Assembly (NCBI RefSeq): GCF_049554935.1
Contig: NZ_CP186926.1
Span: 1,120,001-1,184,000, forward strand
Reading direction: 5' to 3'
DNA length: 64,000 bases
Source of the DNA: Methanocaldococcus indicus
GTDB lineage: Archaea > AGJL01 > Methanococci > Methanococcales > Methanocaldococcaceae
Each line of letters opens with the position of its first letter. The first letter of the stretch is position 1. Position numbers and translations under genes: made by a program. The notes beneath the pieces are model-generated. The model searched no databases. It saw only the letters and a list, made by a program, of their open reading frames with translations, and was not told the origin of the DNA. Positions 7,452 through 20,218 of this stretch are shown piece after piece.

Positions 7452-8579
7452 CTATATAACTTTATTAAATACAGAATCAGCTGATTTTTGTGTTAGTTCA
7501 TAAATATTTATAGTATTATCAGAAATCTGCTTTAAAGTTGTTGATATTCTTGTATTGATACATATTGAGTATATTTTTATATTTTTTGATTTTATGATGT
7601 TTTTTATTTGCTCTATATCATCTAATGATAAATCATATTCTCCATCTGTAATAAATACAATATCACCATTATAAGACAAAGCTTTTTTTAAAGGTTTTTC
7701 AAAGTTAGTTCCACCACCATAAAATATAGAAGCAATATATATAATATCATCAAAGTTTATTTTTTCATATTCCAATATCTCCCTAACATCATCATCAAAA
7801 ATAATTATTTTACATTTTCTTTTTTCTTTTATAGCTACCTCTAACAAACTTATAGTTATTGCTTTTGCCCAAAGCTCTTTATTGCCTCTCATTGAGCCAC
7901 TTAAATCCAAACAAATTATAAAATCACCAACATTTTTTGAGATATCTAATTTATAGTTTAATAGCTTTTTCTCAGTATATCTCCTTAAAAAGTCAAGATA
8001 TAAGTAATCATCAGTTAAATTTTTTAATTCTGAAAGTATGAGATTATTTAAACTATCTCCCAAAGTTATTTCATATTTCTCTTTTGATGTTTGTCTTATT
8101 TTGTATCTATATTTTGATAAAGCTATTTTTCTAAATTTTCCAAGAATTTTAATAAGTTCTTTTAGTTTTCTGTTTTTTGCTATCTTTTTAGAGAGCTCTA
8201 ACTTATTTTTAGGATTTAAATAAGTTTTATCACCTTGTCCATATCCATAACTAACAGACAATAGACTTTCAAGATAATCCTCTAAATCTTCAATTATCTC
8301 ATTTATTTCCTTTCTTTCTTCACTTATTTTCTTACAAAAATAGTCAGTTGCTAATATGGAGTAGTATTCACTCAAAGTAGTTATATTTTTTATATTCTTA
8401 AATTTTTTGTTTGATTTTATTTTTTCAATTATCTCATTGTTCCTTAAAATTTCAATGTTGTATTTATAAAATAGATAGAAGATATTTTCCATTAAATCCT
8501 CATCTAAATAGGGATTAATTGAGTCCCTATATTTCTCCCATATTAGTTTATCATATCTATCATGCTTTATAATTATCAT
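7452..8579 (-). CDS. VWA domain protein (ViaA-like)
   Basis: MIDAS motif DLSGSM, GGGTNF, FITDG. Confidence 0.85.
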   Translation of the reverse strand: MIIIKHDRYDKLIWEKYRDSINPYLDEDLMENIFYLFYKYNIEILRNNEIIEKIKSNKKFKNIKNITTLSEYYSILATDYFCKKISEERKEINEIIEDLEDYLESLLSVSYGYGQGDKTYLNPKNKLELSKKIAKNRKLKELIKILGKFRKIALSKYRYKIRQTSKEKYEITLGDSLNNLILSELKNLTDDYLYLDFLRRYTEKKLLNYKLDISKNVGDFIICLDLSGSMRGNKELWAKAITISLLEVAIKEKRKCKIIIFDDDVREILEYEKINFDDIIYIASIFYGGGTNFEKPLKKALSYNGDIVFITDGEYDLSLDDIEQIKNIIKSKNIKIYSICINTRISTTLKQISDNTINIYELTQKSADSVFNKVI

Positions 8580-8605
8580 ATTAGCTCCCAAATTACAAAT
8601 ATATG

Positions 8606-8648
8606 TTATAAATATATGCTATTATTTTAATATATTGTCTTGTATTTT
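8606..8648. repeat. Left copy of 43-bp direct repeat (att-like island boundary)
   Basis: ttataaatatatgctattattttaatatattgtcttgtatttt, identical to 20176-20218. Confidence 0.92.
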
Positions 8649-8780
8649 GTAACTGACAGTATGATTACGGTATTCCTTTCTTTATTTAACTGATAGTGTG
8701 AATTCTTATTATCGATTTTAAAACCAAAAAAATAAAATAGTATCGATTTAAATACACTACTAAAAACATATGAAACTCCC

Positions 8781-9480
8781 ATGCTAACCACACTTAAAGA
8801 ATTACTCGTTAATGGTTTAAATACTTTAGGTATAGCCAATTCGGATAACTTGGTAGATTACTGCTTGGTTAGAACTTTAACCGAGATAAAGACAATTAAA
8901 GCAATATCTGGAGAGATTTTAGAAATTCATCGAACAACCATAATCAAAAAACTTCAAAAGCTATCGGAAATTGAGAACTGCTTTTATACTCATCTACTAA
9001 ACCTTCCCAACATTTTAAATAATCGTAAATTTAAATTTTCAATAATAATTGATTCAACCTTATTGAGAAGATATAGTAAAAATGTATTTGTTTGGCAGTT
9101 CTATTAGATACAATTACGTAGAAAATCATAAAAAATTATATCAAGAACAAATAAACTGCTGTATTTTTAATAAAAAAAAGGATTATACGATATACACCAC
9201 AATAAAACCAAGGAATATTAAATCGACTGATGTATATTTAAGAATTATAGAATCAATATCTAAAATTATTAAGAAAACGGTCGTTGGTGATGGTTTTGTA
9301 ACAATAAAGAAAATTTTAAGGAGATGTAATGAATTGGGAATCAATTATATTGGTAGAATCAGAAAAAACATAAAAATTGAAGTTTTCGGTAAAGATGTTA
9401 AAATAGAAGATATGTTTAAAAAGGACTTCAACGAAAATAAAGCTAAATTTTGTGATTTTCTTTACATAAATTATTTATAA
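8781..9480 (+). pseudogene. Degenerate DDE transposase (IS4/IS701/ISH3-like), frameshifted and truncated
   Basis: IIIDST first Asp motif, VVGDGF second Asp motif, YIGRIRKN; split over two frames with no C-terminal Glu region. Confidence 0.7.
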
Positions 9481-9671: not shown

Positions 9672-10604
9672 ATGAAAGTTGGAATTACAGCAATAGTTCC
9701 ACCTGAGATTATTTACGCAACAAATCATACACCTTTAGATTTAAACAACTTTGTTCCACAATCTAATATAACTCCAAAAAATAAACTATGTGCCTGGACT
9801 GCTACATGGAGGGACTTAATTTTAGAGGATAAAATTAAAATTGATAAATTAATTGTTGTTGCAGGTGGAGATTGCCAAAATTCCCTTGTTGATGCTGAAA
9901 AGATAGAATTAAAGAAAAAAATTCCAACACATTATTTCTTTTATCAATTTGGAGATAAAAAGCACTTTGAAAATGAAATAAAAAAACTTATTAATTTTTT
10001 AGGAGGAGATGTTGATAAAGATATTTTAAGAGAAGTTTACAAAATAAAGAAACTTGTAAAAAAAGTCGATGAATTATGCTACAAAGACAAAATAAATGGG
10101 AAAGATGCGTTTTATACTATAATCTCTGCAAGCGATTTAAAAGGAAATCCAGACGTATATAAAAAAGAAATCAATAATTTATTAAACAAAGATGAAAATG
10201 TCGAATATAGTCATAGAATTGCTATAATAGGAATTCCTCCAATTTTTATAGATTTTTATGAATATTTAAATGAAATAAATGTACATTGTGTTTATAATGA
10301 GCTACCTTATGAGTTTATAAGAATGGGAGGATATTCAATAAAGAGTATTGTAGATACATATTCAACATACACATTTGCTAACCATATAAATAAAAGGATA
10401 AAGATTATAAAGAGAGAGCTAAAAAAAAGAAAGGTCGATGGAGTAATTCATTATACCCAAATGTGTTGCCATCATAAATTGGAAGATGAAATTCTCAGAG
10501 AATTTATTGATTATCCCATGCTAACAATAGAGGGGGATATTCCTCAAAAAACACCTGAACAAACAAAGTTAAGGATAGAAGCATTTATAGAATTGTTGGG
10601 ATAG
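9672..10604 (+). CDS. 2-hydroxyacyl-CoA dehydratase (HgdA/B/D) family Fe-S protein, short form
   Basis: VPPEII.A, LCAW, GGDCQN, DGVIHYTQMCCH, L.IEGD, KLRIEAF.E motifs; GGTGAG RBS before ATG 9672. Confidence 0.8.
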   Translation: MKVGITAIVPPEIIYATNHTPLDLNNFVPQSNITPKNKLCAWTATWRDLILEDKIKIDKLIVVAGGDCQNSLVDAEKIELKKKIPTHYFFYQFGDKKHFENEIKKLINFLGGDVDKDILREVYKIKKLVKKVDELCYKDKINGKDAFYTIISASDLKGNPDVYKKEINNLLNKDENVEYSHRIAIIGIPPIFIDFYEYLNEINVHCVYNELPYEFIRMGGYSIKSIVDTYSTYTFANHINKRIKIIKRELKKRKVDGVIHYTQMCCHHKLEDEILREFIDYPMLTIEGDIPQKTPEQTKLRIEAFIELLG

Positions 10605-10606
10605 CC

Positions 10607-11287
10607 ATGATAGGTATTGATGTTGGTTCAACAAACATAAAAATCGTAGACGGGAAGAGTTTTAAAAAATATCCAATAATTAAATTAAATGAAATATTAG
10701 AAAAATATAATAATGAAGAATCTTTTGCGACTGGATATTTTAGAAAGAGATTTAAAAATTACATAACTGAAATTACTGCTGCTATATATGGAATTGATAA
10801 AGATGTTGAAGTTATAATCGATATTGGGGGACAAGATACAAAGATAATAAACACAAAAACATTAGAGTTTATAATGAATGATAAATGTGGAGCAGGGACT
10901 GGATTATTTTTACAAACTATAGCAATGTATTTAAATGTTCCTATCGAAGATTTTGGAAAATATTATTCAAAAAATCCTCTAAACTTGAATAATACTTGTG
11001 CTGTTTTTTCAATTTCAGAAATAATTAACTACCTCGTGAGTGGCTATACTATTAAAGATATTATAGCATCTGTAAATTACACTATAGCAAAGAAAATAGC
11101 TAATATTAATCCCTATGAATGTGAAACTCTTACTCTAATTGGTGGAGTTGCAGAAAATAAAGCATTTGTGAGATATTTTAAAGAAATTACTGAGAAAGAA
11201 GTTTATGTTCCTAAAAATCCGCAATTTATAAATGCAATAGGGGCGAGAAAATATGGAATTAAATACTCAACAAAAAATCATCTTTGA
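10607..11287 (+). CDS. Acyl-CoA dehydratase activase (HgdC/BadF-BcrAD ASKHA ATPase, [4Fe-4S])
   Basis: GIDVGST, ATGY, DIGGQDTK, MNDKCGAGTG, TCAVF, GGVA.N, A.GA. Confidence 0.9.
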   Translation: MIGIDVGSTNIKIVDGKSFKKYPIIKLNEILEKYNNEESFATGYFRKRFKNYITEITAAIYGIDKDVEVIIDIGGQDTKIINTKTLEFIMNDKCGAGTGLFLQTIAMYLNVPIEDFGKYYSKNPLNLNNTCAVFSISEIINYLVSGYTIKDIIASVNYTIAKKIANINPYECETLTLIGGVAENKAFVRYFKEITEKEVYVPKNPQFINAIGARKYGIKYSTKNHL

Positions 11288-11828
11288 AATTTACGATTTA
11301 TACAAAAAATTTGAATTAATTGAAAGTAATAACAAATGTAAAAAGCTATCTAAAAGAATAGAAAAAATTAAAAATGGAATTGTAGTTAAAGATATTTATG
11401 ATGTTAATTATGTTGATAGAGTTCAGGAGATTTTATTAAATTACAGAGAAATTTGGGGTTTTATTTATAAATCATCAATAAAACAGTGGATTGCAACATC
11501 TAAAACTATAAATGTAGCTGGAATTTTTTATAAGGATGATTTAATTGGAGTTATGGTTTATGGAGAGAGACCAAATTATTTGAAAATTAATTACATTGCA
11601 GTAGATAAAAAATTTAAAGATAAATCTCTTGGAGGATATTTTATTCAATTTTTAGAGAAAAAAGCTAAAAAATTAAAAAAGAAAAAAATATATGCAGAAG
11701 TTCCAAAAATAAATGAGAATGGACTAAGATTTTTTATAAAAAATAGATTTGTAATTGAAGGAATTTTAAAAAATCATACAAGAAGGGACAAAGATTTAGT
11801 TTTAATGGCTAAATATTTAGAGGGATAA
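11253..11828 (+). CDS. GNAT family acetyltransferase
   Basis: IAVDKKFKDKSLG motif A, N..GLRFF.K..F..EG motif B. Confidence 0.85.
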   Translation: MELNTQQKIIFEIYDLYKKFELIESNNKCKKLSKRIEKIKNGIVVKDIYDVNYVDRVQEILLNYREIWGFIYKSSIKQWIATSKTINVAGIFYKDDLIGVMVYGERPNYLKINYIAVDKKFKDKSLGGYFIQFLEKKAKKLKKKKIYAEVPKINENGLRFFIKNRFVIEGILKNHTRRDKDLVLMAKYLEG

Positions 11829-11829
11829 A

Positions 11830-12756
11830 ATGGTGGAATTTTTTGCATCGTTGACCATTTCTCCAGGACAAATTAGAAAAATGGTTGAACTTTTAAAGAA
11901 ACACGAACCAAAAAAATGGGCTTTTGAAAATGTGATTTTTACACCGATAGTTTCATCAGAAGGGACTATAAAAGAAATTAAAAATTTAAAAAGAAAATAT
12001 AAAACAACTATTATGTTTGATAGTGGTGGTTATTATGTTCAACAGGGAAAGTTTGAAATATATCAACTGTTTTCCTTTTTAAGGGAATTTTATGAAAACA
12101 ATAAATGGGGAGATTGGTATGTTCTACCAGATTCTCCACCAGTGTCATCTGATAGTATAAATATTGCTTGGGGAAAAGTCCATGAGACAGTTTATTTTGC
12201 AAAGAGTTTTGCAGAAGAATTTAATGGAAAAATAGAGAAAAAATTTGTTCCTGTTGTTCAGGGCATTAATGAAGAACAAATCTATTATTGTATCAAAAAT
12301 TATGCTGATTTGAATGTTAAAAGAATAGGTTTTGGAAGTTTTGGAACTTGTGGAAAGAATAATCAGATTAATCGACTAACAAAAGAAAGTTTAGAAAACT
12401 TAAAATATTTGTCTATGTTAGCAAGAGATTATGGATTTGAGTTACATGCCTTTGGTATTGGTGGAGGAAGTTCTGTAAATAAAATTAAAGACTATGTTGA
12501 TAGTTTTGATAGTAGTGGTTGGGATAAAGCTGGAGGATTTGGAGACATATTTTTTCCAGGTTCGAGAACTATTAACATAACTGGAAAATCTGGAAGAATA
12601 TCTTCAAAAAATTACATAGGTTATGAAGATATGATTGAAAATCTTAGAAATGGGCATAGGTGTTATTTTTGTAAAAATATTGCCAATCTAAAAAAATATA
12701 AGATATATCGGTCATTACATAATATAATAGTGCTTTATGAAATGGTGAAAGAATGA
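11830..12756 (+). CDS. tRNA-guanine transglycosylase (TGT)/DpdA-like base-exchange enzyme
   Basis: MFDSGGY, LPD.P, VPVVQG, LHAFG, VDSFDSSGW, C-terminal HxCxxC...HN Zn site; no PUA domain. Confidence 0.85.
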   Translation: MVEFFASLTISPGQIRKMVELLKKHEPKKWAFENVIFTPIVSSEGTIKEIKNLKRKYKTTIMFDSGGYYVQQGKFEIYQLFSFLREFYENNKWGDWYVLPDSPPVSSDSINIAWGKVHETVYFAKSFAEEFNGKIEKKFVPVVQGINEEQIYYCIKNYADLNVKRIGFGSFGTCGKNNQINRLTKESLENLKYLSMLARDYGFELHAFGIGGGSSVNKIKDYVDSFDSSGWDKAGGFGDIFFPGSRTINITGKSGRISSKNYIGYEDMIENLRNGHRCYFCKNIANLKKYKIYRSLHNIIVLYEMVKE

Positions 12757-13493
12757 GTAGGGGATATCACATTCAACATAATGCAAAACCATCAATTATT
12801 AGAGAATTTATTGAATACAGTCCAAATGCTAAAAAATCAGAACTTAAAGAAGTGTTTTTAAATATAAAACCCAGCATTATAGATGATAATTATACAATTA
12901 TGAATAAACTTATTAATAGAGAAGATAAAAATGAGATTGAAAACCTTTTGAAAATGGATGAGGTAATATTTAATAATTATCTTCATTATAAGCTCTATTC
13001 ATCATCTTTACCAATTGGATGGTCATATAGAAGTGTAATTCATATATTATTTGAAGAATATAAGGATAAAAAAATAAATTACAACGATATTGAACAAAAA
13101 GTTAAAGATAAAGCATTTAATGAAGGTTTGGGAAGTATATCATTTAGTAGCAATAGTGTTCGTGGAGCAATTAATTTTATTAAATCTTTATACCCTTCTC
13201 CAATAGATGAAAATAACATATTCAACCTCAGAGATTATTGTCAACCACATCTCTTATTATGGGGAGTGGATTATCTTTATAAAAAACAATGGGGAGAGGA
13301 ATATGGTTCATTAATGCTTTTGGATAGTGAAAAAATTGAAGAACTTTGTAAATTTTGTTTAATTGATGAAGATGTGTTGGACAATCATTTAAAGGAACTT
13401 GGATTTATGTATGATTTTGTGGAAATATCGATAAAGGCATTTGGGAAGTATATAAGATTAAAAAGAGCTTGGAGTTTTAATGATATCTTATAA
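12753..13493 (+). CDS. Hypothetical protein, possible DUF4007/SspB/BrxA-like winged-helix DNA-binding subunit
   Basis: 246 aa, overlaps the TGT stop; C-terminal F.IDED.L...L.EL....VEI pattern recalls DUF4007; family call is weak. Confidence 0.45.
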   Translation: MSRGYHIQHNAKPSIIREFIEYSPNAKKSELKEVFLNIKPSIIDDNYTIMNKLINREDKNEIENLLKMDEVIFNNYLHYKLYSSSLPIGWSYRSVIHILFEEYKDKKINYNDIEQKVKDKAFNEGLGSISFSSNSVRGAINFIKSLYPSPIDENNIFNLRDYCQPHLLLWGVDYLYKKQWGEEYGSLMLLDSEKIEELCKFCLIDEDVLDNHLKELGFMYDFVEISIKAFGKYIRLKRAWSFNDIL

Positions 13494-13505
13494 AAGGGGA
13501 AAATA

Positions 13506-14015
13506 ATGGATTATATTGTACTAATAAACTATATCAAAAATAATTATTCTTTTAATTGGCTAACAAATAGTCAGAAAAATGCGTATAATATATTAAAAGA
13601 GTATCTTATTTATGATGATGTTATTAATCTTTATGGAAAAAGAGGAGTAGGGAAAACATTTTTAGGATGGGTATTTGCAAAAAATAACAACTTTATATAT
13701 TTTGAAAATGAAGATGCATTTAGAAATTATAAAGTAAAGACAAAAATAAATGCAATTATTGATAATGGCTCATTGAAGGATGGAAGGGAGATTAGAAGGA
13801 TGGTCTCCTTAAAAACCAATAAAGTAATTTACATTTCAAGAAAGAAAATTTTAGATTATGGTATAGAGTTAAAGTTAGATTTAAATGATGTAGAACATGT
13901 TTTAAATAATCTATCTCCAATTATTGGAGAAAATATAAATACTAACATTCAAAATTTGAAAATAAATGATATCGATTTATGGAACATTTTTAAGGGGAGG
14001 GTATATGAATATTAG
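13506..14015 (+). CDS. Small P-loop NTPase-like protein (BrxB-like position)
   Basis: INLYGKRGVGKT Walker A, AIIDN degenerate Walker B; directly upstream of the large ATPase. Confidence 0.65.
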   Translation: MDYIVLINYIKNNYSFNWLTNSQKNAYNILKEYLIYDDVINLYGKRGVGKTFLGWVFAKNNNFIYFENEDAFRNYKVKTKINAIIDNGSLKDGREIRRMVSLKTNKVIYISRKKILDYGIELKLDLNDVEHVLNNLSPIIGENINTNIQNLKINDIDLWNIFKGRVYEY

Positions 14016-17000
14016 TGTATTAGAATTTATAATAAATAAAAGTCCAGTAGTAGATACACAATCAGCCGAAAATTTAATAAATGAACCAGATTCAGTTGCA
14101 GATAAGTATGAAAATCATTTAAAAACCTATATAAAAGTTGATAATGAAGAATTTGATAAGCGATTTGTGAGAGAAATTAAAAAAGGAAAAACTGTAAAAG
14201 GTTATATTTCCGCTCCTTTTGGTTATGGAAAGACAAGTAAAGCATTAAGTTTATGGGAATATTGTAAAAAGAATAACATCTTTTCCATCCCTCCATTTAA
14301 ATTTGATGGAAAGCTTGATACAATAATGGACGCAGTTTATGGATGGACTAGATATGTTTATAAATACAAATATCCTGAATATGTGGACAAAATTGAAAAA
14401 ATTTATAGAAAATATAAAACACTAAGTATAGAAAAAGAAATAGATGAACTGGCAAAAAAAGAACACTTAACGAGAGATGAAGCAAAAAGAATAATTAATA
14501 ATTTCATAGAAAAAGGTAAACTAATTATATCAATGACACCAAAGGACTTGATGAATTTTTTAAAAGAGATGAATGAGATTATAAAAAAACATTTTGATGG
14601 ATTGGCAATTTTTGTAGATGAAGTGCAAGGAATAAAAAATATGGAAACTATTAATAATTTAAGAAACTTTATTTTCGAACTTAGTATTAACAATATAGGA
14701 TTAGGTATTTTATTCATAATTCCTGATTATCAAGAAGAGGACTTAAATATAAGAGCAGGAGATTTAATTGACAGATTACGAAAAGATGGATTTTACTTAA
14801 ATTTAGTAAATATATACAATGTAGATTTTGCAGAAAAATTATGGAAAAAATATGGAGAACTTTTACAATTTAATCCTTATGATATTATAACAAAGGACTG
14901 TTTAAGAAGTATTGGAGAAATATCTTCAAGAGATGATTTAGGAAAAGGTCCAAGAACTGTCATAGGGGCATTTAAATGTGCTTGTATGAAATATAAAGAA
15001 AAATTTGAGCCATACAATGTGTTTGATTTTGTTAATGATATTTTAAATGGTAAAATCGCATACATACAACAAAAATATTTAGATGCTTTAAATGAGGGGC
15101 TATCATTGAAGAAAGTTAATTCCGAAGAAAAAAGAAATGTTATTAAATTATTAGGGGCATTCCCGAGAGGAATAAGTGAAGAAATGATAAAAAAGTATGG
15201 CTTATATGATGAGTATGAAGAACTATCAGATGCTTATTATGGAACTGAGATTGTTTATGCACTTGAGGGATATACTCTAAGAGGATTATTAGACGAAACA
15301 CCAGATGGCTATGTCGAACAGCATATAAGGAAATTTAGAAGTGTATTTGATGAATCTTGGGAGGACGAGATGATTAATGCTTTTATAAATTATATATTAC
15401 CTGAAATTTTCCCAAAGAAAAAAGGATCTCAGATTGTAGGGTGGAGATTTGATAAAAAATACCCAATAAGTAATGGATATTATCACCAACTAACTGGGAC
15501 ATTTAATCCAAAATATCCTTTTAGAATTGTTGGGATATATTCTTTGAGGAAAGAACTTAAAGAAAAAGAAATGACGCTTATTAAAAATTTGGTTAATAAT
15601 GAGTCACCAGATGTTGAATTTAAATTTATATTAGATAAAAACATAGAAAATAACGATTTGATAATTAACTATAAAAATGGAGAAGTTATCTTTAAATTTG
15701 ATGTTTTAAAGAAAGTTGGAGAAGATAAATTACCTGGAGATTTGAAAAAACTTCAACAATATGTTAAACCACAAGAAGTTACGCCAATGTTTATGTTATG
15801 TCTTTTAGATTACTTTGACAAAATAAAAGAAAAAGAAGATGAATATGCAAAGTATGGGGGTGAAATTAATGCATTAAGGTCTATTCTTGTAAGATATTTA
15901 AAAAGATTTTTGTTTTCTGATGAGTTGGCAGAAAAATACGAGTTAAGGAAAAGACAAGAAAAAATAGTCGAAGAAATATTTAATAGAATTTGTGAATATA
16001 AATTTAAAGATTATAGAACATTAATTCATTCTCCAAACTGGCATAGAGATTTAGAGAGATATAGAATTTTATTGGAATCACTTTCAATTTCAAAAAGAAG
16101 GGGTGAAGAATTTGAAACTACTAAAAAAGAACTAGTTTCTAAATTGACTGGAAGTAAGAATCCAAGTGTTGCAGGATTCGATGATGAATGTAAAAATGGA
16201 AAATGGAAGGACTTGATATATTTGGAATATTGGGGTAAAGGAGAAAAAATTAAGGTTAAATTAAAAAAGCATCAACTTGAAGAAAGGATATTAAAAGAAT
16301 TCATTGAAAAATGGACACAACCAATAAGTATTGATGTAATAATTAATTATGGAATTAATTTGGGATACATTCCAGAAGAAGTCGAAGAAATTTTAAAAAT
16401 CCTTGAAAGTAGGAAATACATTGAAATTGATAAAGGATATATATTCAAACTTGAGGAGATAACAAACACTGATGTTTTAAATAAATTTGATGAAATTGAA
16501 AAACTTGCGAAGAAAGTTGCCAATCTTTATAAAAAATATGGAAAAGATATCCCAAACATCCCCATAAAATTATCTAAAAAAGATGAAATTAAGAACCAAA
16601 ATGATTCTGATTTATTATACAAAGAATTAGAACTTTTGGAAAGTTGGGAAAAAACATTAAAAGGATATCATAAGATGATTAAAAATGAAATAGATAAAAA
16701 TAAGGAAGAACTACTAAATGAAATCATAAAAACAAGGGAAAAAACAGAAGGACTAAAAAAGAAAATAGATGACATAAAAGAGGATATTATAAAGACCCAT
16801 TATTCATTAGGGGGAATTGTTAAGCATTTAGAAGAACAAATAAAGATAACAAAAAAGAAATGTAATAAGATATCGAGAGATTTATTGGAATTGAGAGAAA
16901 AAATAAACTCTTCAAGAGATATTGAAACTCTTGCCGAGATTTTAAATATTGCAAATAAAGAAATGGAACGTTTAAGAAAAGAACATACTGACATTAATGA

Positions 17001-17841
17001 AAAATATAATAAATTTAAATCTTGGTTAGCAATTCTTAGAAAATTAGAAGAATTACATGAAAAAATAGATTCCTATAAGGATTATATTGATATTGATGAA
17101 GAATATGAAAGATTTAACGAACTAATAGACGAAATAATAACTAACTTTGCAAGAGATGGGTGGGATTATCTAAACATGGATAAGGACGTTGAAAAAGATA
17201 TAGAATTAATAGAAAAAGACATAAAGAAAAAAGAAAGTAATTTAAGAAACGAATTTAATAAGATTCAAGATGAAATAAAAACAAAAATGGTTATCTTATC
17301 TCAAACACTAAAATCGTTAGATGTTTCTCCGTATTCATACAGAGAAGCATTTAGTATTGAAGATAGAGAGACAGCATACCAAAATCTTGTAAGAAATGTG
17401 AGGTTGTATCTCCAAGAAATTTTAAACAAGTTACATGACTATATTATATCATTAAAAACTGAAGTAGAGGTTAAATTGGGTAATAATGAAAATTATATAA
17501 CTATACTAAAGGAAATAGAAGATAAATTGGACAATATAAATATAGAAATTATAGAAAAAAATAATTTAATAACTGCTGTTGAAGAAATAAAATCAAATAT
17601 ACTTGATATATGGGAAGAAATAGAGAAGACTAGAAAAGAAATAAAAAGAGAAATTATTGAAAAAAATAAATCTGGTAAGTCAGAAGAAGAAATAAAAATA
17701 ATAGAATTATTAAACAAATATGGTGAAATTTCCATTAAAGAACTTACAAAACATTTAAACATGCCTATCGAGGGGACGTTAAAATGTCTATTGAATATGG
17801 AGAATATAGAAATAATTGTAAGGAAAAGATGGAAAAAATAA
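14005..17841 (+). CDS. Large P-loop ATPase with long C-terminal coiled coil (BrxC/SspC/PglY-like)
   Basis: APFGYGKTS Walker A, AIFVDEVQ Walker B, GPRT sensor-like motif, ~450 aa E/K-rich heptads, terminal wHTH-like segment; GGGGAGG RBS before ATG 14005. Confidence 0.75.
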   Translation: MNISVLEFIINKSPVVDTQSAENLINEPDSVADKYENHLKTYIKVDNEEFDKRFVREIKKGKTVKGYISAPFGYGKTSKALSLWEYCKKNNIFSIPPFKFDGKLDTIMDAVYGWTRYVYKYKYPEYVDKIEKIYRKYKTLSIEKEIDELAKKEHLTRDEAKRIINNFIEKGKLIISMTPKDLMNFLKEMNEIIKKHFDGLAIFVDEVQGIKNMETINNLRNFIFELSINNIGLGILFIIPDYQEEDLNIRAGDLIDRLRKDGFYLNLVNIYNVDFAEKLWKKYGELLQFNPYDIITKDCLRSIGEISSRDDLGKGPRTVIGAFKCACMKYKEKFEPYNVFDFVNDILNGKIAYIQQKYLDALNEGLSLKKVNSEEKRNVIKLLGAFPRGISEEMIKKYGLYDEYEELSDAYYGTEIVYALEGYTLRGLLDETPDGYVEQHIRKFRSVFDESWEDEMINAFINYILPEIFPKKKGSQIVGWRFDKKYPISNGYYHQLTGTFNPKYPFRIVGIYSLRKELKEKEMTLIKNLVNNESPDVEFKFILDKNIENNDLIINYKNGEVIFKFDVLKKVGEDKLPGDLKKLQQYVKPQEVTPMFMLCLLDYFDKIKEKEDEYAKYGGEINALRSILVRYLKRFLFSDELAEKYELRKRQEKIVEEIFNRICEYKFKDYRTLIHSPNWHRDLERYRILLESLSISKRRGEEFETTKKELVSKLTGSKNPSVAGFDDECKNGKWKDLIYLEYWGKGEKIKVKLKKHQLEERILKEFIEKWTQPISIDVIINYGINLGYIPEEVEEILKILESRKYIEIDKGYIFKLEEITNTDVLNKFDEIEKLAKKVANLYKKYGKDIPNIPIKLSKKDEIKNQNDSDLLYKELELLESWEKTLKGYHKMIKNEIDKNKEELLNEIIKTREKTEGLKKKIDDIKEDIIKTHYSLGGIVKHLEEQIKITKKKCNKISRDLLELREKINSSRDIETLAEILNIANKEMERLRKEHTDINEKYNKFKSWLAILRKLEELHEKIDSYKDYIDIDEEYERFNELIDEIITNFARDGWDYLNMDKDVEKDIELIEKDIKKKESNLRNEFNKIQDEIKTKMVILSQTLKSLDVSPYSYREAFSIEDRETAYQNLVRNVRLYLQEILNKLHDYIISLKTEVEVKLGNNENYITILKEIEDKLDNINIEIIEKNNLITAVEEIKSNILDIWEEIEKTRKEIKREIIEKNKSGKSEEEIKIIELLNKYGEISIKELTKHLNMPIEGTLKCLLNMENIEIIVRKRWKK

Positions 17842-18734
17842 AGACTCCATGTTACTTAAAAATAAAACATAAACTTTCACTTCTATTTTCTGATTTTGAA
17901 GACATCTCCTATAATGATTTCTGGTTAATGGTAGACAACCCAAATAAAAAACTTCCTCAGAAAAAATTTGTTATAACCGATAAATTTGATTATAGATTAC
18001 CTATTTATGAAATAAATCATAATCCTTTTACACCAGAATTAAACAAAATTATTAGTGAAAAATATCATCTAATTGAAAAATATGTTAAGACACAAAGAGA
18101 TATTAAAGATTATATCGTTGATTATGTTAATACCAAAACTCCAAAAACTGTTATTTTGTATCTTATTGATGGACTATCGTATTGGGACTATATAAATGCA
18201 AGCATAAAATATAATGTTGAACCAATATTTGTCAATGGAAAAACAACAACCGAAAATGGGCTTAAAAATATTGTTTATGGAAAAAATGGCATACCTATTG
18301 CAAAAGAACTTTATAAGTTTGGATATAAAGGCTACGGACAAACTTATTGGAATAGAAAAAATAAATTAACAGATATTTTGTTTAGATACATAAGTGAAAA
18401 GAACATTTTTTATTATGATGAAAACATACACGACATAATAGTTAAAAATAAACAATCAAAGAAATATATTCAAATTTATAAAATTGGATTAGATGATGAT
18501 GCACATAAGTTAAGAGAAGTTAGTAAAAAAAGTATAATTAATAAAATAAAAGAAATATTTGAAAATATAAACATCTTAAGAGATATTCTAAATCAAACTA
18601 ATCAGCCTTATCTTATAGTAATTACTGCTGACCATGGTATAAAGTGGGATTTTACAAAAAAATATAGAAAAGGTTCTCATGGAAACATTTCATTTGAGGA
18701 GTGTTTTGTGCCTTTAATTATAATTGAGGGGTAG
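17829..18734 (+). CDS. PglZ-like alkaline phosphatase superfamily protein
   Basis: LYLIDGLSY, LDDDAH, IVITADHG, SHGNISFEECFVP metal-binding motifs typical of the PglZ domain. Confidence 0.82.
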   Translation: MEKIKTPCYLKIKHKLSLLFSDFEDISYNDFWLMVDNPNKKLPQKKFVITDKFDYRLPIYEINHNPFTPELNKIISEKYHLIEKYVKTQRDIKDYIVDYVNTKTPKTVILYLIDGLSYWDYINASIKYNVEPIFVNGKTTTENGLKNIVYGKNGIPIAKELYKFGYKGYGQTYWNRKNKLTDILFRYISEKNIFYYDENIHDIIVKNKQSKKYIQIYKIGLDDDAHKLREVSKKSIINKIKEIFENINILRDILNQTNQPYLIVITADHGIKWDFTKKYRKGSHGNISFEECFVPLIIIEG

Positions 18735-18736
18735 CT

Positions 18737-19897
18737 ATGTTATTTATTGGAAGAGAAAAACTAAAAGACAGATTAGGAGATGATGTGTATATAGATGCTT
18801 CAAAATCTCATGCAATTTTTATTTGTGGTAAAAGAGGTAGTGGAAAAAGTTATACTTTAGGTGTTTTAGTTGAAGAACTTCAAGAAAAATACTCCGAGTA
18901 TCTAAAAATTATTATCGACCCAATGGGGATATTTTGGACTATGGTAGAGCCAAATGAAGAACAGGAAGAAGAACTTTGGGATTGGGATTTATATCCAGAA
19001 AGATATCCTGTTAAGTTAATAGTCCCTGGGGAAATAGAGGAAAGATTTGACGAAGATGTTATAAAAGAAATGGAAAATAGGGGAGTAGAATTTAAAAAAC
19101 TTCTTTTGAATCCTTCTGATATCTCAGCAGAAGGATGGTGTGATTTATTCAATTTAAATATAAACGAAATTATGGGAATTGCTTTGTATAGGGCAATTGA
19201 TAATATTGAAAAAGATTTTTTCACAATAGATGATATTATTTATGAGGTTGAGATGGATACAAAATCAAAAGAATCTACAAAAGAAGCATTAATAAATCGT
19301 CTAAACATGGCAAAAAAGTGGGGAATTTTTTCAGATGAATACATTCCAATAGAAAATATTTTTGAAAAAAATTCAATAAATGTTATTGATTTAAGTGTTA
19401 TTGAAAGTGGAAGATATGGGTTAAGAGATTTGATTGTATCAATAATTGCAAAATACTTATTTAATCAACGATTGAAAGCAAGAAAAAAAGAAATGTTAAA
19501 TTTACAATCAAAAATGCCAAAAGTTTGGCTGTTTATTGACGAAGCACATAATTTTATTCCTTCTGGGAAATCAACATTATCAAAAGAAATTCTAATAAGA
19601 TGGGCAAAGGAAGGACGACAGCCTGGGTTAAATTTAGTTATAGCTACTCAACAACCATCAGCAATTGACAATGAAGTTTTAAGTCAATGTGATATAATCT
19701 TTGCTCATAAAGTGACTAATAGAGAAGATATAAATGCATTAAATAAGCTCAATCAAGAGTATATGGGAAAGGAACTAAAAGTATATATTAAAGATTTAAA
19801 TAAAGGAGAATGTGTTTTTATTGATGATGAAAAAGAATTCTTAAAAATTATAAAAATAAGAACAAGAAAAAGTAAACATGGAGGAGGAGAAAAGTAA
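18737..19897 (+). CDS. HerA/FtsK-like ATPase (DUF87), no N-terminal HAS barrel
   Basis: ICGKRGSGKSYT, IIDPMG, LFIDEAHNF, KEGRQPG, ATQQPS. Confidence 0.9.
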   Translation: MLFIGREKLKDRLGDDVYIDASKSHAIFICGKRGSGKSYTLGVLVEELQEKYSEYLKIIIDPMGIFWTMVEPNEEQEEELWDWDLYPERYPVKLIVPGEIEERFDEDVIKEMENRGVEFKKLLLNPSDISAEGWCDLFNLNINEIMGIALYRAIDNIEKDFFTIDDIIYEVEMDTKSKESTKEALINRLNMAKKWGIFSDEYIPIENIFEKNSINVIDLSVIESGRYGLRDLIVSIIAKYLFNQRLKARKKEMLNLQSKMPKVWLFIDEAHNFIPSGKSTLSKEILIRWAKEGRQPGLNLVIATQQPSAIDNEVLSQCDIIFAHKVTNREDINALNKLNQEYMGKELKVYIKDLNKGECVFIDDEKEFLKIIKIRTRKSKHGGGEK

Positions 19898-20175: not shown

Positions 20176-20218
20176 TTATAAATATATGCTATTATTTTAA
20201 TATATTGTCTTGTATTTT
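20176..20218. repeat. Right copy of 43-bp direct repeat, overlapping the pilin-like gene stop codon
   Basis: Identical to 8606-8648; encodes KIQDNILK-stop of the 20192-20413 gene. Confidence 0.92.

Follow-up and report, generated by a model that had tools for sequence, protein, structure and literature searches.

A compact tRNA-guanine transglycosylase-like enzyme in a BREX-related island of Methanocaldococcus indicus: a candidate for base exchange in DNA

To our knowledge, 7-deazaguanine marks in DNA have been described for phages and for a single bacterial system, Dpd. Cap10, a tRNA-guanine transglycosylase (TGT)-fold enzyme of an immune system, the type IV cyclic oligonucleotide-based antiphage signaling system (CBASS), modifies protein and works with a QueC-like partner of the Cap9 type. 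The bacteriophage exclusion (BREX)-related capture, or BRC, system was described in January 2026 from 45 taxa, by comparative genomics only (NAR 2026;54(3):gkag035, PMC12839542). According to its main text, BRC has seven components, namely a short PglZ, a BrxC-like DUF6079 protein, an active STAND NTPase, a BrxA-like DUF4007 protein, HerA/FtsK, a GNAT and a TGT; the HerA/FtsK translocase is said to be universal, the BrxC-like protein is an ORC/Cdc6 AAA+ ATPase, the GNAT is occasionally fused to the TGT, and the hosts are archaeal and bacterial. The same text proposes that the TGT inserts dPreQ0 as a self mark, with the NTPase standing in for DpdB and without DpdB or DpdC. Here we describe a locus in a 64,000-nt stretch of the Methanocaldococcus indicus genome (contig NZ_CP186926.1, positions 1,120,001 to 1,184,000; this whole stretch is the window, and its own coordinates are used below), centered on an open reading frame (ORF) at 11830..12756 on the + strand whose product, a putative compact TGT-superfamily base-exchange enzyme of 308 aa, we call P0001. 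We propose, from sequence and gene context and with about even confidence, that P0001 is the base-exchange enzyme of a GNAT plus TGT-like marking module that is carried in a mobile BREX-related defense island and acts on DNA. The DNA-marking idea is already in print, and what is added here includes, beyond the main text of PMC12839542, a pair of genes for an iron-sulfur (Fe-S) protein and its activase. Further additions are que genes beside the operon on a haloarchaeal plasmid, a viral GNAT and TGT pair, a subtype without HerA and a direct repeat around the island.

The P0001 ORF starts with ATG, and the strand opposite it carries many stops throughout. Its motifs are FDSGG (residues 63-67), LPD (99-101), VVQG (142-145) and GFGSFGT (167-173), followed in the C-terminal half by HAFG (206-209), VDSFDS (223-228), HRCYFC (276-281) and HN (297-298). 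A word-indexed search with P0001 returned 318 relatives at E <=1e-3 among 993 candidates, and an exhaustive search returned 166 cluster representatives, 50 of them with E <1e-30. Across 22 relatives at 36-84% identity, D64, D101, Q144, G145, H206, D227, H276, C278, C281, H297 and N298 were invariant; across 145 relatives, D64, H206, G209 and H297 were kept without exception, and D101, D227, H276, C278, C281 and N298 were each kept in at least 90%. Because these residues are conserved across relatives, the motifs go beyond chance. GNAT-fused relatives and a viral copy carry His at the position equivalent to Q144. With catalytic roles taken from DpdA and TGT (PMC10164549), D227 aligns with the nucleophile, D64 with the general acid/base, and D101 and Q144 with the residues that read the Watson-Crick edge, while H276/C278/C281/H297 align with the Zn site; as judged by alignment, all residues that TGT and DpdA use for their double-displacement chemistry are in place. 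The 308 residues make up a catalytic barrel and a Zn sub-domain and nothing further, the sequence ending with the Zn sub-domain, so that the tRNA-binding C1, C2 and PUA domains are missing. P0001 is probably an intact TGT-superfamily enzyme without C1/C2/PUA, and active by its residues. An earlier sequence-only reading of the window had listed DSGG, VDSFDS, PD, QG, HAFG and a variant Zn site and had called the catalytic residues intact and the PUA domain absent. Each of these motifs was present and conserved in the family, the catalytic residues were kept across both the 22- and the 145-relative alignments, and the absence of PUA was borne out by domain comparison with the housekeeping archaeosine TGT (arcTGT).

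Family models gave P0001 scores below their cut-offs: Pfam TGT PF01702 reached 17.6 bits (cut-off 26.3, E 2.1e-3) and Pfam DpdA PF23859 reached 17.3 bits (cut-off 27, E 2.4e-3). PF01702 is present in most relatives in precomputed annotation, with 41.6 bits for the orthologue from Haloplanus, and PF23859 is barely passed by a few (27.8-30.1 bits). When 26 host genomes were scanned with PF23859, three BRC-type genes and nothing else were found, and scans of 40 genomes of the phylum and of five DpdA-encoding phages gave no match; since this model misses five phages known to encode DpdA, it is unusable for excluding DpdA. NCBIfam and PADLOC searches with P0001 gave no match, and the best library match was to PHROG 887 (phrog_887, E 1e-5, residues 49-254), which matched in all five phages named as DpdA-encoding in PMC6884629. 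Among PDB sequences the single P0001 sequence found nothing relevant, and the family profile was needed to recover arcTGT (E 1.4e-10), DpdA (1.2e-9), bacterial TGT (3.3e-6) and Cap10 (1.4e-3). We then compared an AlphaFold (AF2) model of P0001 from 145 sequences (pLDDT 92.3, pTM 0.91) with 48,161 chains in VIA-align. It matched arcTGT 1iq8 (Z 24.1, rmsd 2.7, 265 aligned, 19% identity), bacterial TGT 3unt (Z 21.7), DpdA 7ui4 (Z 21.6, 284 aligned), QTRT2 (Z 20.7), Cap10 (Z 16.9) and unrelated TIM barrels (Z <=16.4), with structural matches spanning residues 1-308, and in Foldseek the first 50 rows were TGT without exception. As modeled, P0001 has the TGT fold, a (beta/alpha)8 barrel with a C-terminal Zn sub-domain, and the model resembles arcTGT, bacterial TGT and DpdA to about an equal degree.

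A close known counterpart is DpdA of Salmonella Montevideo (7ui4; PMC10164549), likewise a TGT barrel, in which the nucleophile, the general acid/base and the base-edge Asp align with those of P0001; both proteins are stand-alone catalytic domains within a defense island. They differ at position 144, which is Gln in P0001, as in tRNA TGTs, and His in DpdA; in the large Ins8 of DpdA, missing from P0001 by length (308 vs 413-436 aa); in the Zn site, kept in P0001 with its first Cys replaced by His; and in their neighbors, as Pfam, NCBIfam and PADLOC found neither DpdB (ParB-like ATPase) nor DpdC (DUF328) among the island ORFs, and the main text of PMC12839542 says the same of BRC. The phage DpdA proteins of PHROG 887 (9g, CAjan, 7-11, Dp-1 and Rosebush) have D-S-x-x-W after the nucleophile Asp in common with P0001, but 9g and CAjan lack a CxxC Zn motif in the part that aligns. 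The best structural and profile match is arcTGT (1iq8), whose HxFG, FDS and CxxC...HN motifs align with P0001; unlike P0001, it has C1, C2 and PUA, and it falls in a separate clade. The weaker match to Cap10 bears on a reading that we consider very improbable, in which P0001 would conjugate a nucleobase to a protein and thereby regulate, for example, the neighboring P-loop NTPase or BrxC-like ATPase. Cap10 is a TGT-fold defense enzyme solved with a modified protein target (PDB 9ntn title), it matches both the model (Z 16.9) and the family profile (E 1.4e-3), and a 2026 preprint predicts nucleobase transfer for another TGT-like immune domain; however, its Z lies clearly below those of the nucleic-acid enzymes arcTGT, bacterial TGT and DpdA (21.6-24.1), and the island ORFs include neither a QueC-like, Cap9-type partner nor a CD-NTase in Pfam, NCBIfam and PADLOC searches.

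To place the family, we built an unrooted tree with IQ-TREE (LG+C20, 327 columns) from 47 rows: 24 family members, 4 arcTGT, 6 bacterial TGT, 4 phage DpdA and, drawn from host genomes, 2 TGT paralogs and 7 other TGT-like sequences. arcTGT and bacterial TGT grouped as a clade (99/91) and arcTGT alone as another (100/99), with the family excluded from both; the DpdA of phages 9g, CAjan and Rosebush formed their own clade (100/97), and a 91/99 branch separated the family from the arcTGT/bacterial TGT and phage DpdA clades. The partial DpdA of phage 7-11 fell among the family on a branch of 4.24 changes per column, a placement that is probably a long-branch artefact. By this tree the TGT-like family forms a lineage of its own, the third beside the tRNA-TGT and phage DpdA clades. 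The sequence-only reading had named clustering with tRNA-specific TGTs as the outcome that would speak against it, and such clustering was not seen in the 47-row tree. It had also called for a separate canonical tgtA elsewhere in the genome, which we confirmed: the host's other TGT (G000:C1:706019-707014) is a 645-aa, PUA-bearing arcTGT ORF with TGT, TGT_C1, TGT_C2 and PUA domains.

GNAT toxins that acylate tRNA or aminoacyl-tRNA exist, and P0001 might likewise act on tRNA, serving as a second tRNA-modifying paralog or else as a defense effector that alters host or viral tRNA, with the GNAT acylating tRNA or aminoacyl-tRNA. We find this unlikely. In its favor, every solved TGT apart from DpdA and Cap10 has tRNA as its substrate, both the structural and the profile comparison put arcTGT narrowly first, and the que genes found beside one relative (see below) would be equally useful to a tRNA enzyme; on the other side, the C1/C2/PUA domains are missing, the family lies outside the arcTGT and bacterial TGT clade, the genome already has a complete arcTGT, and the gene is strictly kept in an operon whose other products include the DNA-handling BrxC-like, PglZ-like and HerA proteins.

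Whereas PMC12839542 drew on 45 taxa, our scan of species-representative genomes turned up 99 stretches with a gene for a TGT-like relative; 80 of these were kept. The operon was shown by tblastn and ORF clustering, and its gene order was GNAT, TGT-like, BrxA-like, P-loop NTPase, BrxC-like ATPase, PglZ-like and HerA-like. At the 53 well-flanked loci (at least 3 kb upstream and at least 9 kb downstream), a GNAT that was fused, just upstream or after HerA was found at 45/53, a BrxA-like gene directly downstream of the TGT-like gene at 51/53, and a BrxC-like ATPase of ~1300 aa at 50/53. PglZ-like and HerA genes followed at 28/53 (subtype I), three other genes including a ~1900-aa DEAD/DEAH helicase, without HerA, at 20/53 (subtype II), and neither pattern was present at 5/53. 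The TGT-like gene is part of a conserved operon, not an orphan paralog. The GNAT, seen at 59/81 loci (TGT-fused at 23, just upstream at 17 and after HerA at 19), is a near-obligate partner of the TGT-like enzyme, and the GNAT-TGT fusions argue for an association of the two proteins. In subtype II, of which L079, L098 (Oscillatoria plasmid NC_019763.1) and L151 are examples, the GNAT-TGT/BrxA-like/BrxC-like front end is joined to the helicase and to two family-less proteins (~470 and ~790 aa), without HerA, the PglZ-like gene and the small P-loop gene. That HerA/PglZ and DEAD/DEAH-helicase back ends occur on one front end shows that the GNAT-TGT module is portable.

In the window, the operon appears to match the BRC component list in the main text of PMC12839542 one to one, with clear GNAT, TGT and HerA/FtsK genes and candidates for the other components. 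The GNAT acyltransferase (191 aa, 11253..11828, +; Pfam Acetyltransf_1 5.1e-7) overlaps the activase gene before it by 35 nt and ends 1 nt before the P0001 start, and the P0001 gene overlaps the next gene by 4 nt; P0001 is co-transcribed with DNA-directed defense proteins. That next gene (12753..13493, +) encodes a 246-aa candidate BrxA-like/DUF4007 DNA-binding component. A Pfam scan of the protein gave no match, and at its N terminus it weakly resembled the winged helix of the arginine repressor (E 0.013). Its place in the operon, read against the components that PMC12839542 lists, makes it the probable BrxA-like/DUF4007 component. A P-loop NTPase of 169 aa (13506..14015, +) is a candidate for the BrxB-like STAND NTPase; 25 sequences share its Walker A GxxGxGKT and its Walker B D86 without exception, and its PDB profile matches were to generic AAA+ proteins only. 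The BrxC-like ATPase (1291 aa, 13966..17841, +, whose true start may be ~14005) has conserved Walker A/B motifs and C-terminal coiled-coil and winged-helix parts. The window protein had no Pfam match above cut-off, and DUF6079 was not among the matches listed; its Haloplanus orthologue, which carries the annotation BREX ATP-binding protein, reached 27.3 bits with Pfam BrxC_BrxD, above the cut-off of 22.2.

The last two genes of the operon encode a PglZ-like protein of the alkaline-phosphatase superfamily (316 aa, 17784..18734, +) and a HerA/FtsK-type ATPase (386 aa, 18737..19897, +). A model of the former (pLDDT 85.7) matched alkaline-phosphatase-superfamily chains in VIA-align at Z 12-15; PorX (PglZ domain; Z 14.3 over 232 residues) and BREX PglZ 9zn5 (Z 13.6 over 197 residues) did not score higher than other members of the superfamily. 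Its D/T/DH/H metal-site residues are conserved, and its profile reached no better than E 0.74 against the PglZ 9zn5 sequence. Overall, the accessory-protein profiles gave weak or generic matches at most to PDB sequences, and Atlas searches that pointed to PglZ clusters for the 316-aa protein and to a BrxC-like identity served as leads only. The HerA-like ATPase matched Pfam DUF87 (1.4e-13), PADLOC HerA (1.5e-28) and, below cut-off, NCBIfam anti-phage HerA (3.1e-20), and its DUF87 and PADLOC matches correspond to the HerA/FtsK feature of BRC. PADLOC and NCBIfam models gave no matches to the TGT-like, BrxA-like, P-loop, BrxC-like and PglZ-like proteins. A Pfam scan found no DNA methyltransferase in the island, which leaves the GNAT and TGT as the sole candidate marking module. 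Along its entire length the HerA-like ATPase also matches mad8, the PADLOC model from MADS (E 2.8e-24), which suggests an ATPase stock common to MADS and this system.

If P0001 is a DNA base-exchange enzyme, D227 would attack C1' of a target deoxyguanosine in host double-stranded DNA, and guanine would leave. A 7-deazaguanine-type base would then be inserted, drawn from the preQ0 that the host makes for archaeosine and perhaps processed further. The GNAT may acylate this base, or an amine that it carries, either ahead of insertion or once it is in DNA. Insertion may be driven by an operon ATPase, the part that DpdB plays for DpdA. The mark would label self DNA, and the BrxA/B/C-like, PglZ-like and HerA-like proteins would act on unmarked incoming DNA; in the methanogen islands, a radical or low-potential step might be added by the Fe-S enzyme of HGD-D type together with its activase. 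Should this hold, a third TGT-fold lineage, nearly always paired with an acyltransferase and tied into BREX-like machinery, would widen the chemistry of self/non-self marking, and BREX-type systems would gain a non-methylation marking step. The source names seen for family genes are 'hypothetical' and 'tRNA-guanine transglycosylase', and both misfit the context of the family.

Observations that bear on P0001 as the exchange enzyme of a DNA-marking module, several of them against it, are given in this paragraph and the next. Genomic context points to DNA as the substrate with about an even chance of being right, the evidence being confined to the neighboring genes, and we found no experiment on any member of the TGT-like family in the literature. 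The tree contains no Salmonella-type bacterial DpdA. In the main text of PMC12839542 only some BRC loci have the GNAT and TGT, so that the system can do without the two. Treated there as extras to the capture machinery, and with a first half-reaction of TGT that is base excision via a covalent Asp intermediate (PMC10164549), they would also fit an effector, a glycosylase-like enzyme that removes guanine from, or inserts a damaging base into, incoming DNA captured by the HerA/BrxC-like machinery. We think this quite improbable: the base pocket keeps the residues of true exchangers, a candidate effector is already at hand in the PglZ-like protein of the island, and a virus that carries GNAT and TGT-like genes beside its own replication genes fits self-protection better than self-damage. 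In this tailed Thermocrinis virus, the GNAT gene and a TGT-like gene of 39% identity lie beside clamp, helicase, nuclease and PolA genes, and the record contains no BREX-like genes, a setting that speaks for a link of the pair to DNA. The viral TGT-like frame breaks before the Zn-site segment, which resumes in another frame, and because it is split across two reading frames, the gene may be broken or mis-assembled. IMG/VR held two contigs with the family, one being the Thermocrinis virus itself and the other a subtype-II defense island, which indicates that the family is not common in viruses. The viral pair comes from Great Boiling Spring (L096/L152, BK013347.1, 36079-37256), and its GNAT and TGT genes are not discussed in the available text of the virus paper (PMC7689252).

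The incoming base is the weakest step of the DNA-marking proposal, and we infer preQ0 as the inserted base from context. It had been expected that the island would carry no que gene and would draw on host preQ0. The first part was borne out; the second stood for this host, which has a full-length QueC outside the island, and did not extend to the whole family, as QueC was full-length in 19/26 host genomes and missing in 7, all Chloroflexota. QueF was absent from 6/7 QueC-less hosts, and also from 4/4 archaeal hosts. From the loss of QueC in 7/26 hosts it follows that preQ0 may not be the family-wide substrate; a canonical TGT is kept by 26/26 host genomes, so that salvage of 7-deazaguanines is possible in the QueC-less ones. 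A single locus, in Haloplanus, has que genes next to the operon; none turned up at the 80 genome loci, in the viral record or in the window. In TGT and DpdA the choice of 7-substituent is made by the beta6 loop (PMC10164549), which in P0001 is GFGSFGT with an 8-9-residue insertion that contains an invariant Asn. Its sequence in the family appears unlike that of preQ0-specific arcTGT and DpdA, and its register is unstable, the HMM alignment to DpdA and the MAFFT alignment disagreeing. The QueC-less hosts, the que-free loci and the loop sequence favor an exchange of guanine in DNA in which the incoming base is made or acylated by the GNAT (e.g., an acylated purine) and is not a 7-deazaguanine, independent of queuosine and archaeosine; a near-obligate and often fused GNAT would suit it too. 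We regard it as doubtful, since the residues that read the guanine/7-deazaguanine edge are retained (D101, and Q144 or, in GNAT-fused forms and the virus, His), the QueC-less hosts all keep a canonical TGT and probably salvage 7-deazaguanines, and queC/E/D genes do lie beside one operon. That operon, on a plasmid of Haloplanus sp. HW8-1 (L097, NZ_CP098519.1, 105384-118224), is a complete subtype-I operon with the GNAT after HerA, and a divergently oriented queC-queE-queD cluster lies ~1 kb from its TGT-like gene; together with the QueC of the M. indicus host, this speaks for a link to 7-deazaguanine. A PD-(D/E)XK nuclease gene follows the operon on this plasmid.

The two genes at the head of the window operon set the methanogen islands apart from the BRC description, as the words dehydratase, activase, BcrAD and Methanocaldococcus do not occur in the main text of PMC12839542. 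The first (9672..10604, +; start MKVGITA, set from an alignment of relatives) encodes a 310-aa HGD-D-family Fe-S protein with matches to Pfam HGD-D (3.9e-28) and, in part, NCBIfam double_cubane (1e-10) and with three Cys conserved in 4/4 sequences; from these matches, it appears 2-hydroxyacyl-CoA dehydratase-like or double-cubane-reductase-like. The second (10607..11287, +) encodes a 226-aa ATP-dependent activase (BcrAD/BadFG, HgdC-like) that scores 136 bits with TIGR00241 (cut-off 125.4) and 1.4e-25 with Pfam BcrAD_BadFG and retains its ATPase motifs and both cluster cysteines. All 6/6 methanogen genome loci examined encode both an Fe-S protein of the HGD-D family and an intact activase of the HgdC type: the window, three loci from its own genus, a locus from a second Methanococcales genus and one from Methanosarcina. 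The two genes lie just upstream of GNAT in Methanococcales and after HerA in Methanosarcina. The sequence-only reading had noted neither that this pair belongs to the archaeal operon nor that the GNAT is a near-obligate partner. In the 40 phylum genomes, the island-type Fe-S gene (at least 78% identity) was confined to the same five that carry the TGT-like gene; fragments occurred in two more, and other matches were paralogs of ~30-35% identity. The order Fe-S, activase, GNAT, TGT was repeated in four metagenome contigs, and thirteen more distant Fe-S/activase pairs (45-53% identity) had no GNAT, TGT or HerA nearby.

This strict pairing in methanogens hints at an extra chemical step. We tentatively suggest, as an outside chance, that methanogen islands encode a four-enzyme pathway (HGD-D-like protein, activase, GNAT and TGT-like enzyme) that makes and inserts an undescribed DNA base. 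Two versions, which follow the reaction chemistry of double-cubane reductases and 2-hydroxyacyl-CoA dehydratases, fit the data. In one, for archaea, with QueF absent from 4/4 hosts, the Fe-S enzyme would reduce the nitrile of preQ0 to an amine that the GNAT acylates, so that an N-acyl-preQ1-type base enters DNA; in the other, by analogy with its 2-hydroxyacyl-CoA dehydratase relatives, the Fe-S enzyme would tailor the acyl-CoA that the GNAT transfers. On two short metagenome contigs (L147 and L149), GNAT directly follows the Fe-S gene, and on L149 a HerA fragment comes next, with neither activase nor TGT in between; islands that have undergone deletion or rearrangement may account for both contigs. 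The host QueC gene adjoins a distant HGD-D-family paralog of 34% identity outside the window (G000:C1:160663-161319 and 161472-162095), an adjacency that is probably coincidence because the same two genes lie ~25 kb apart in a sister genome.

The operon is bracketed by a 43-nt direct repeat, whose left (8606..8648) and right (20176..20218) copies are 100% identical and spaced 11,570 nt apart, and which encloses transposase fragments and the nine-gene operon. The fragments are two short ORFs (8781..9480, +), the second a DDE/IS4 transposase fragment (Pfam DDE_Tnp_1 E 1.5e-4, below cut-off; NCBIfam IS4 E 1.4e-3), and they overlap a stretch at ~8680-9000 that is multi-copy in the host genome, with several copies 77-94% identical. 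The TGT-like gene is present in 5/40 species genomes of the phylum, and the genes that flank the island in the window have no match near its copies in relatives. The claim that P0001 is island-borne is supported by the bracketing repeat, this patchy distribution and the unshared flanking genes. No integrase gene lies between the repeats and no tRNA gene in window positions 1-30000, and GC content does not mark the island (0.24-0.28 inside vs 0.23-0.32 around). The islands of relatives share neither the 43-nt repeat nor the island ends, and no exact repeats of at least 22 nt flank three of them within 4 kb upstream and 3.5 kb downstream. The left repeat copy sits in the promoter region of a VWA gene (7452-8591, minus strand), and further copies of the ~8680-9000 element lie near 244.6, 489-494 and 1401 kb on G000:C1 and near 8 and 13 kb on G000:C2.

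Comparison of the window island (9672-19897) with three others of the same genus (L090, L091 and L003) showed 94-96% identity for HerA, 83-89% for the TGT-like protein, 70-90% for the PglZ-like protein, 66-81% for the BrxA-like protein and 62-73% for the P-loop NTPase; the components of these islands diverge at uneven rates. At bacterial subtype-I loci, a gene for a protein of 750-1070 aa lies immediately upstream of the TGT-like gene (cluster 3; 43/81 loci). Its product carries 2-5 RNA-polymerase alpha-CTD repeats and sigma-70 region 4 (region 2 in one), with a HARE-HTH domain in 2/4 scanned copies (L055:7318-9561, L037:809-4027, L041:7017-9407 and L013:6960-9995). This protein is absent from the archaeal loci and is not among the seven components named in the main text of PMC12839542. 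In the island of Methanothermococcus sp. Ax23 (L004:11684-16028), a 4.4-kb insert of four genes lies between the BrxA-like and P-loop genes, and one of the four encodes a RAMP-superfamily protein (E 2.9e-19).

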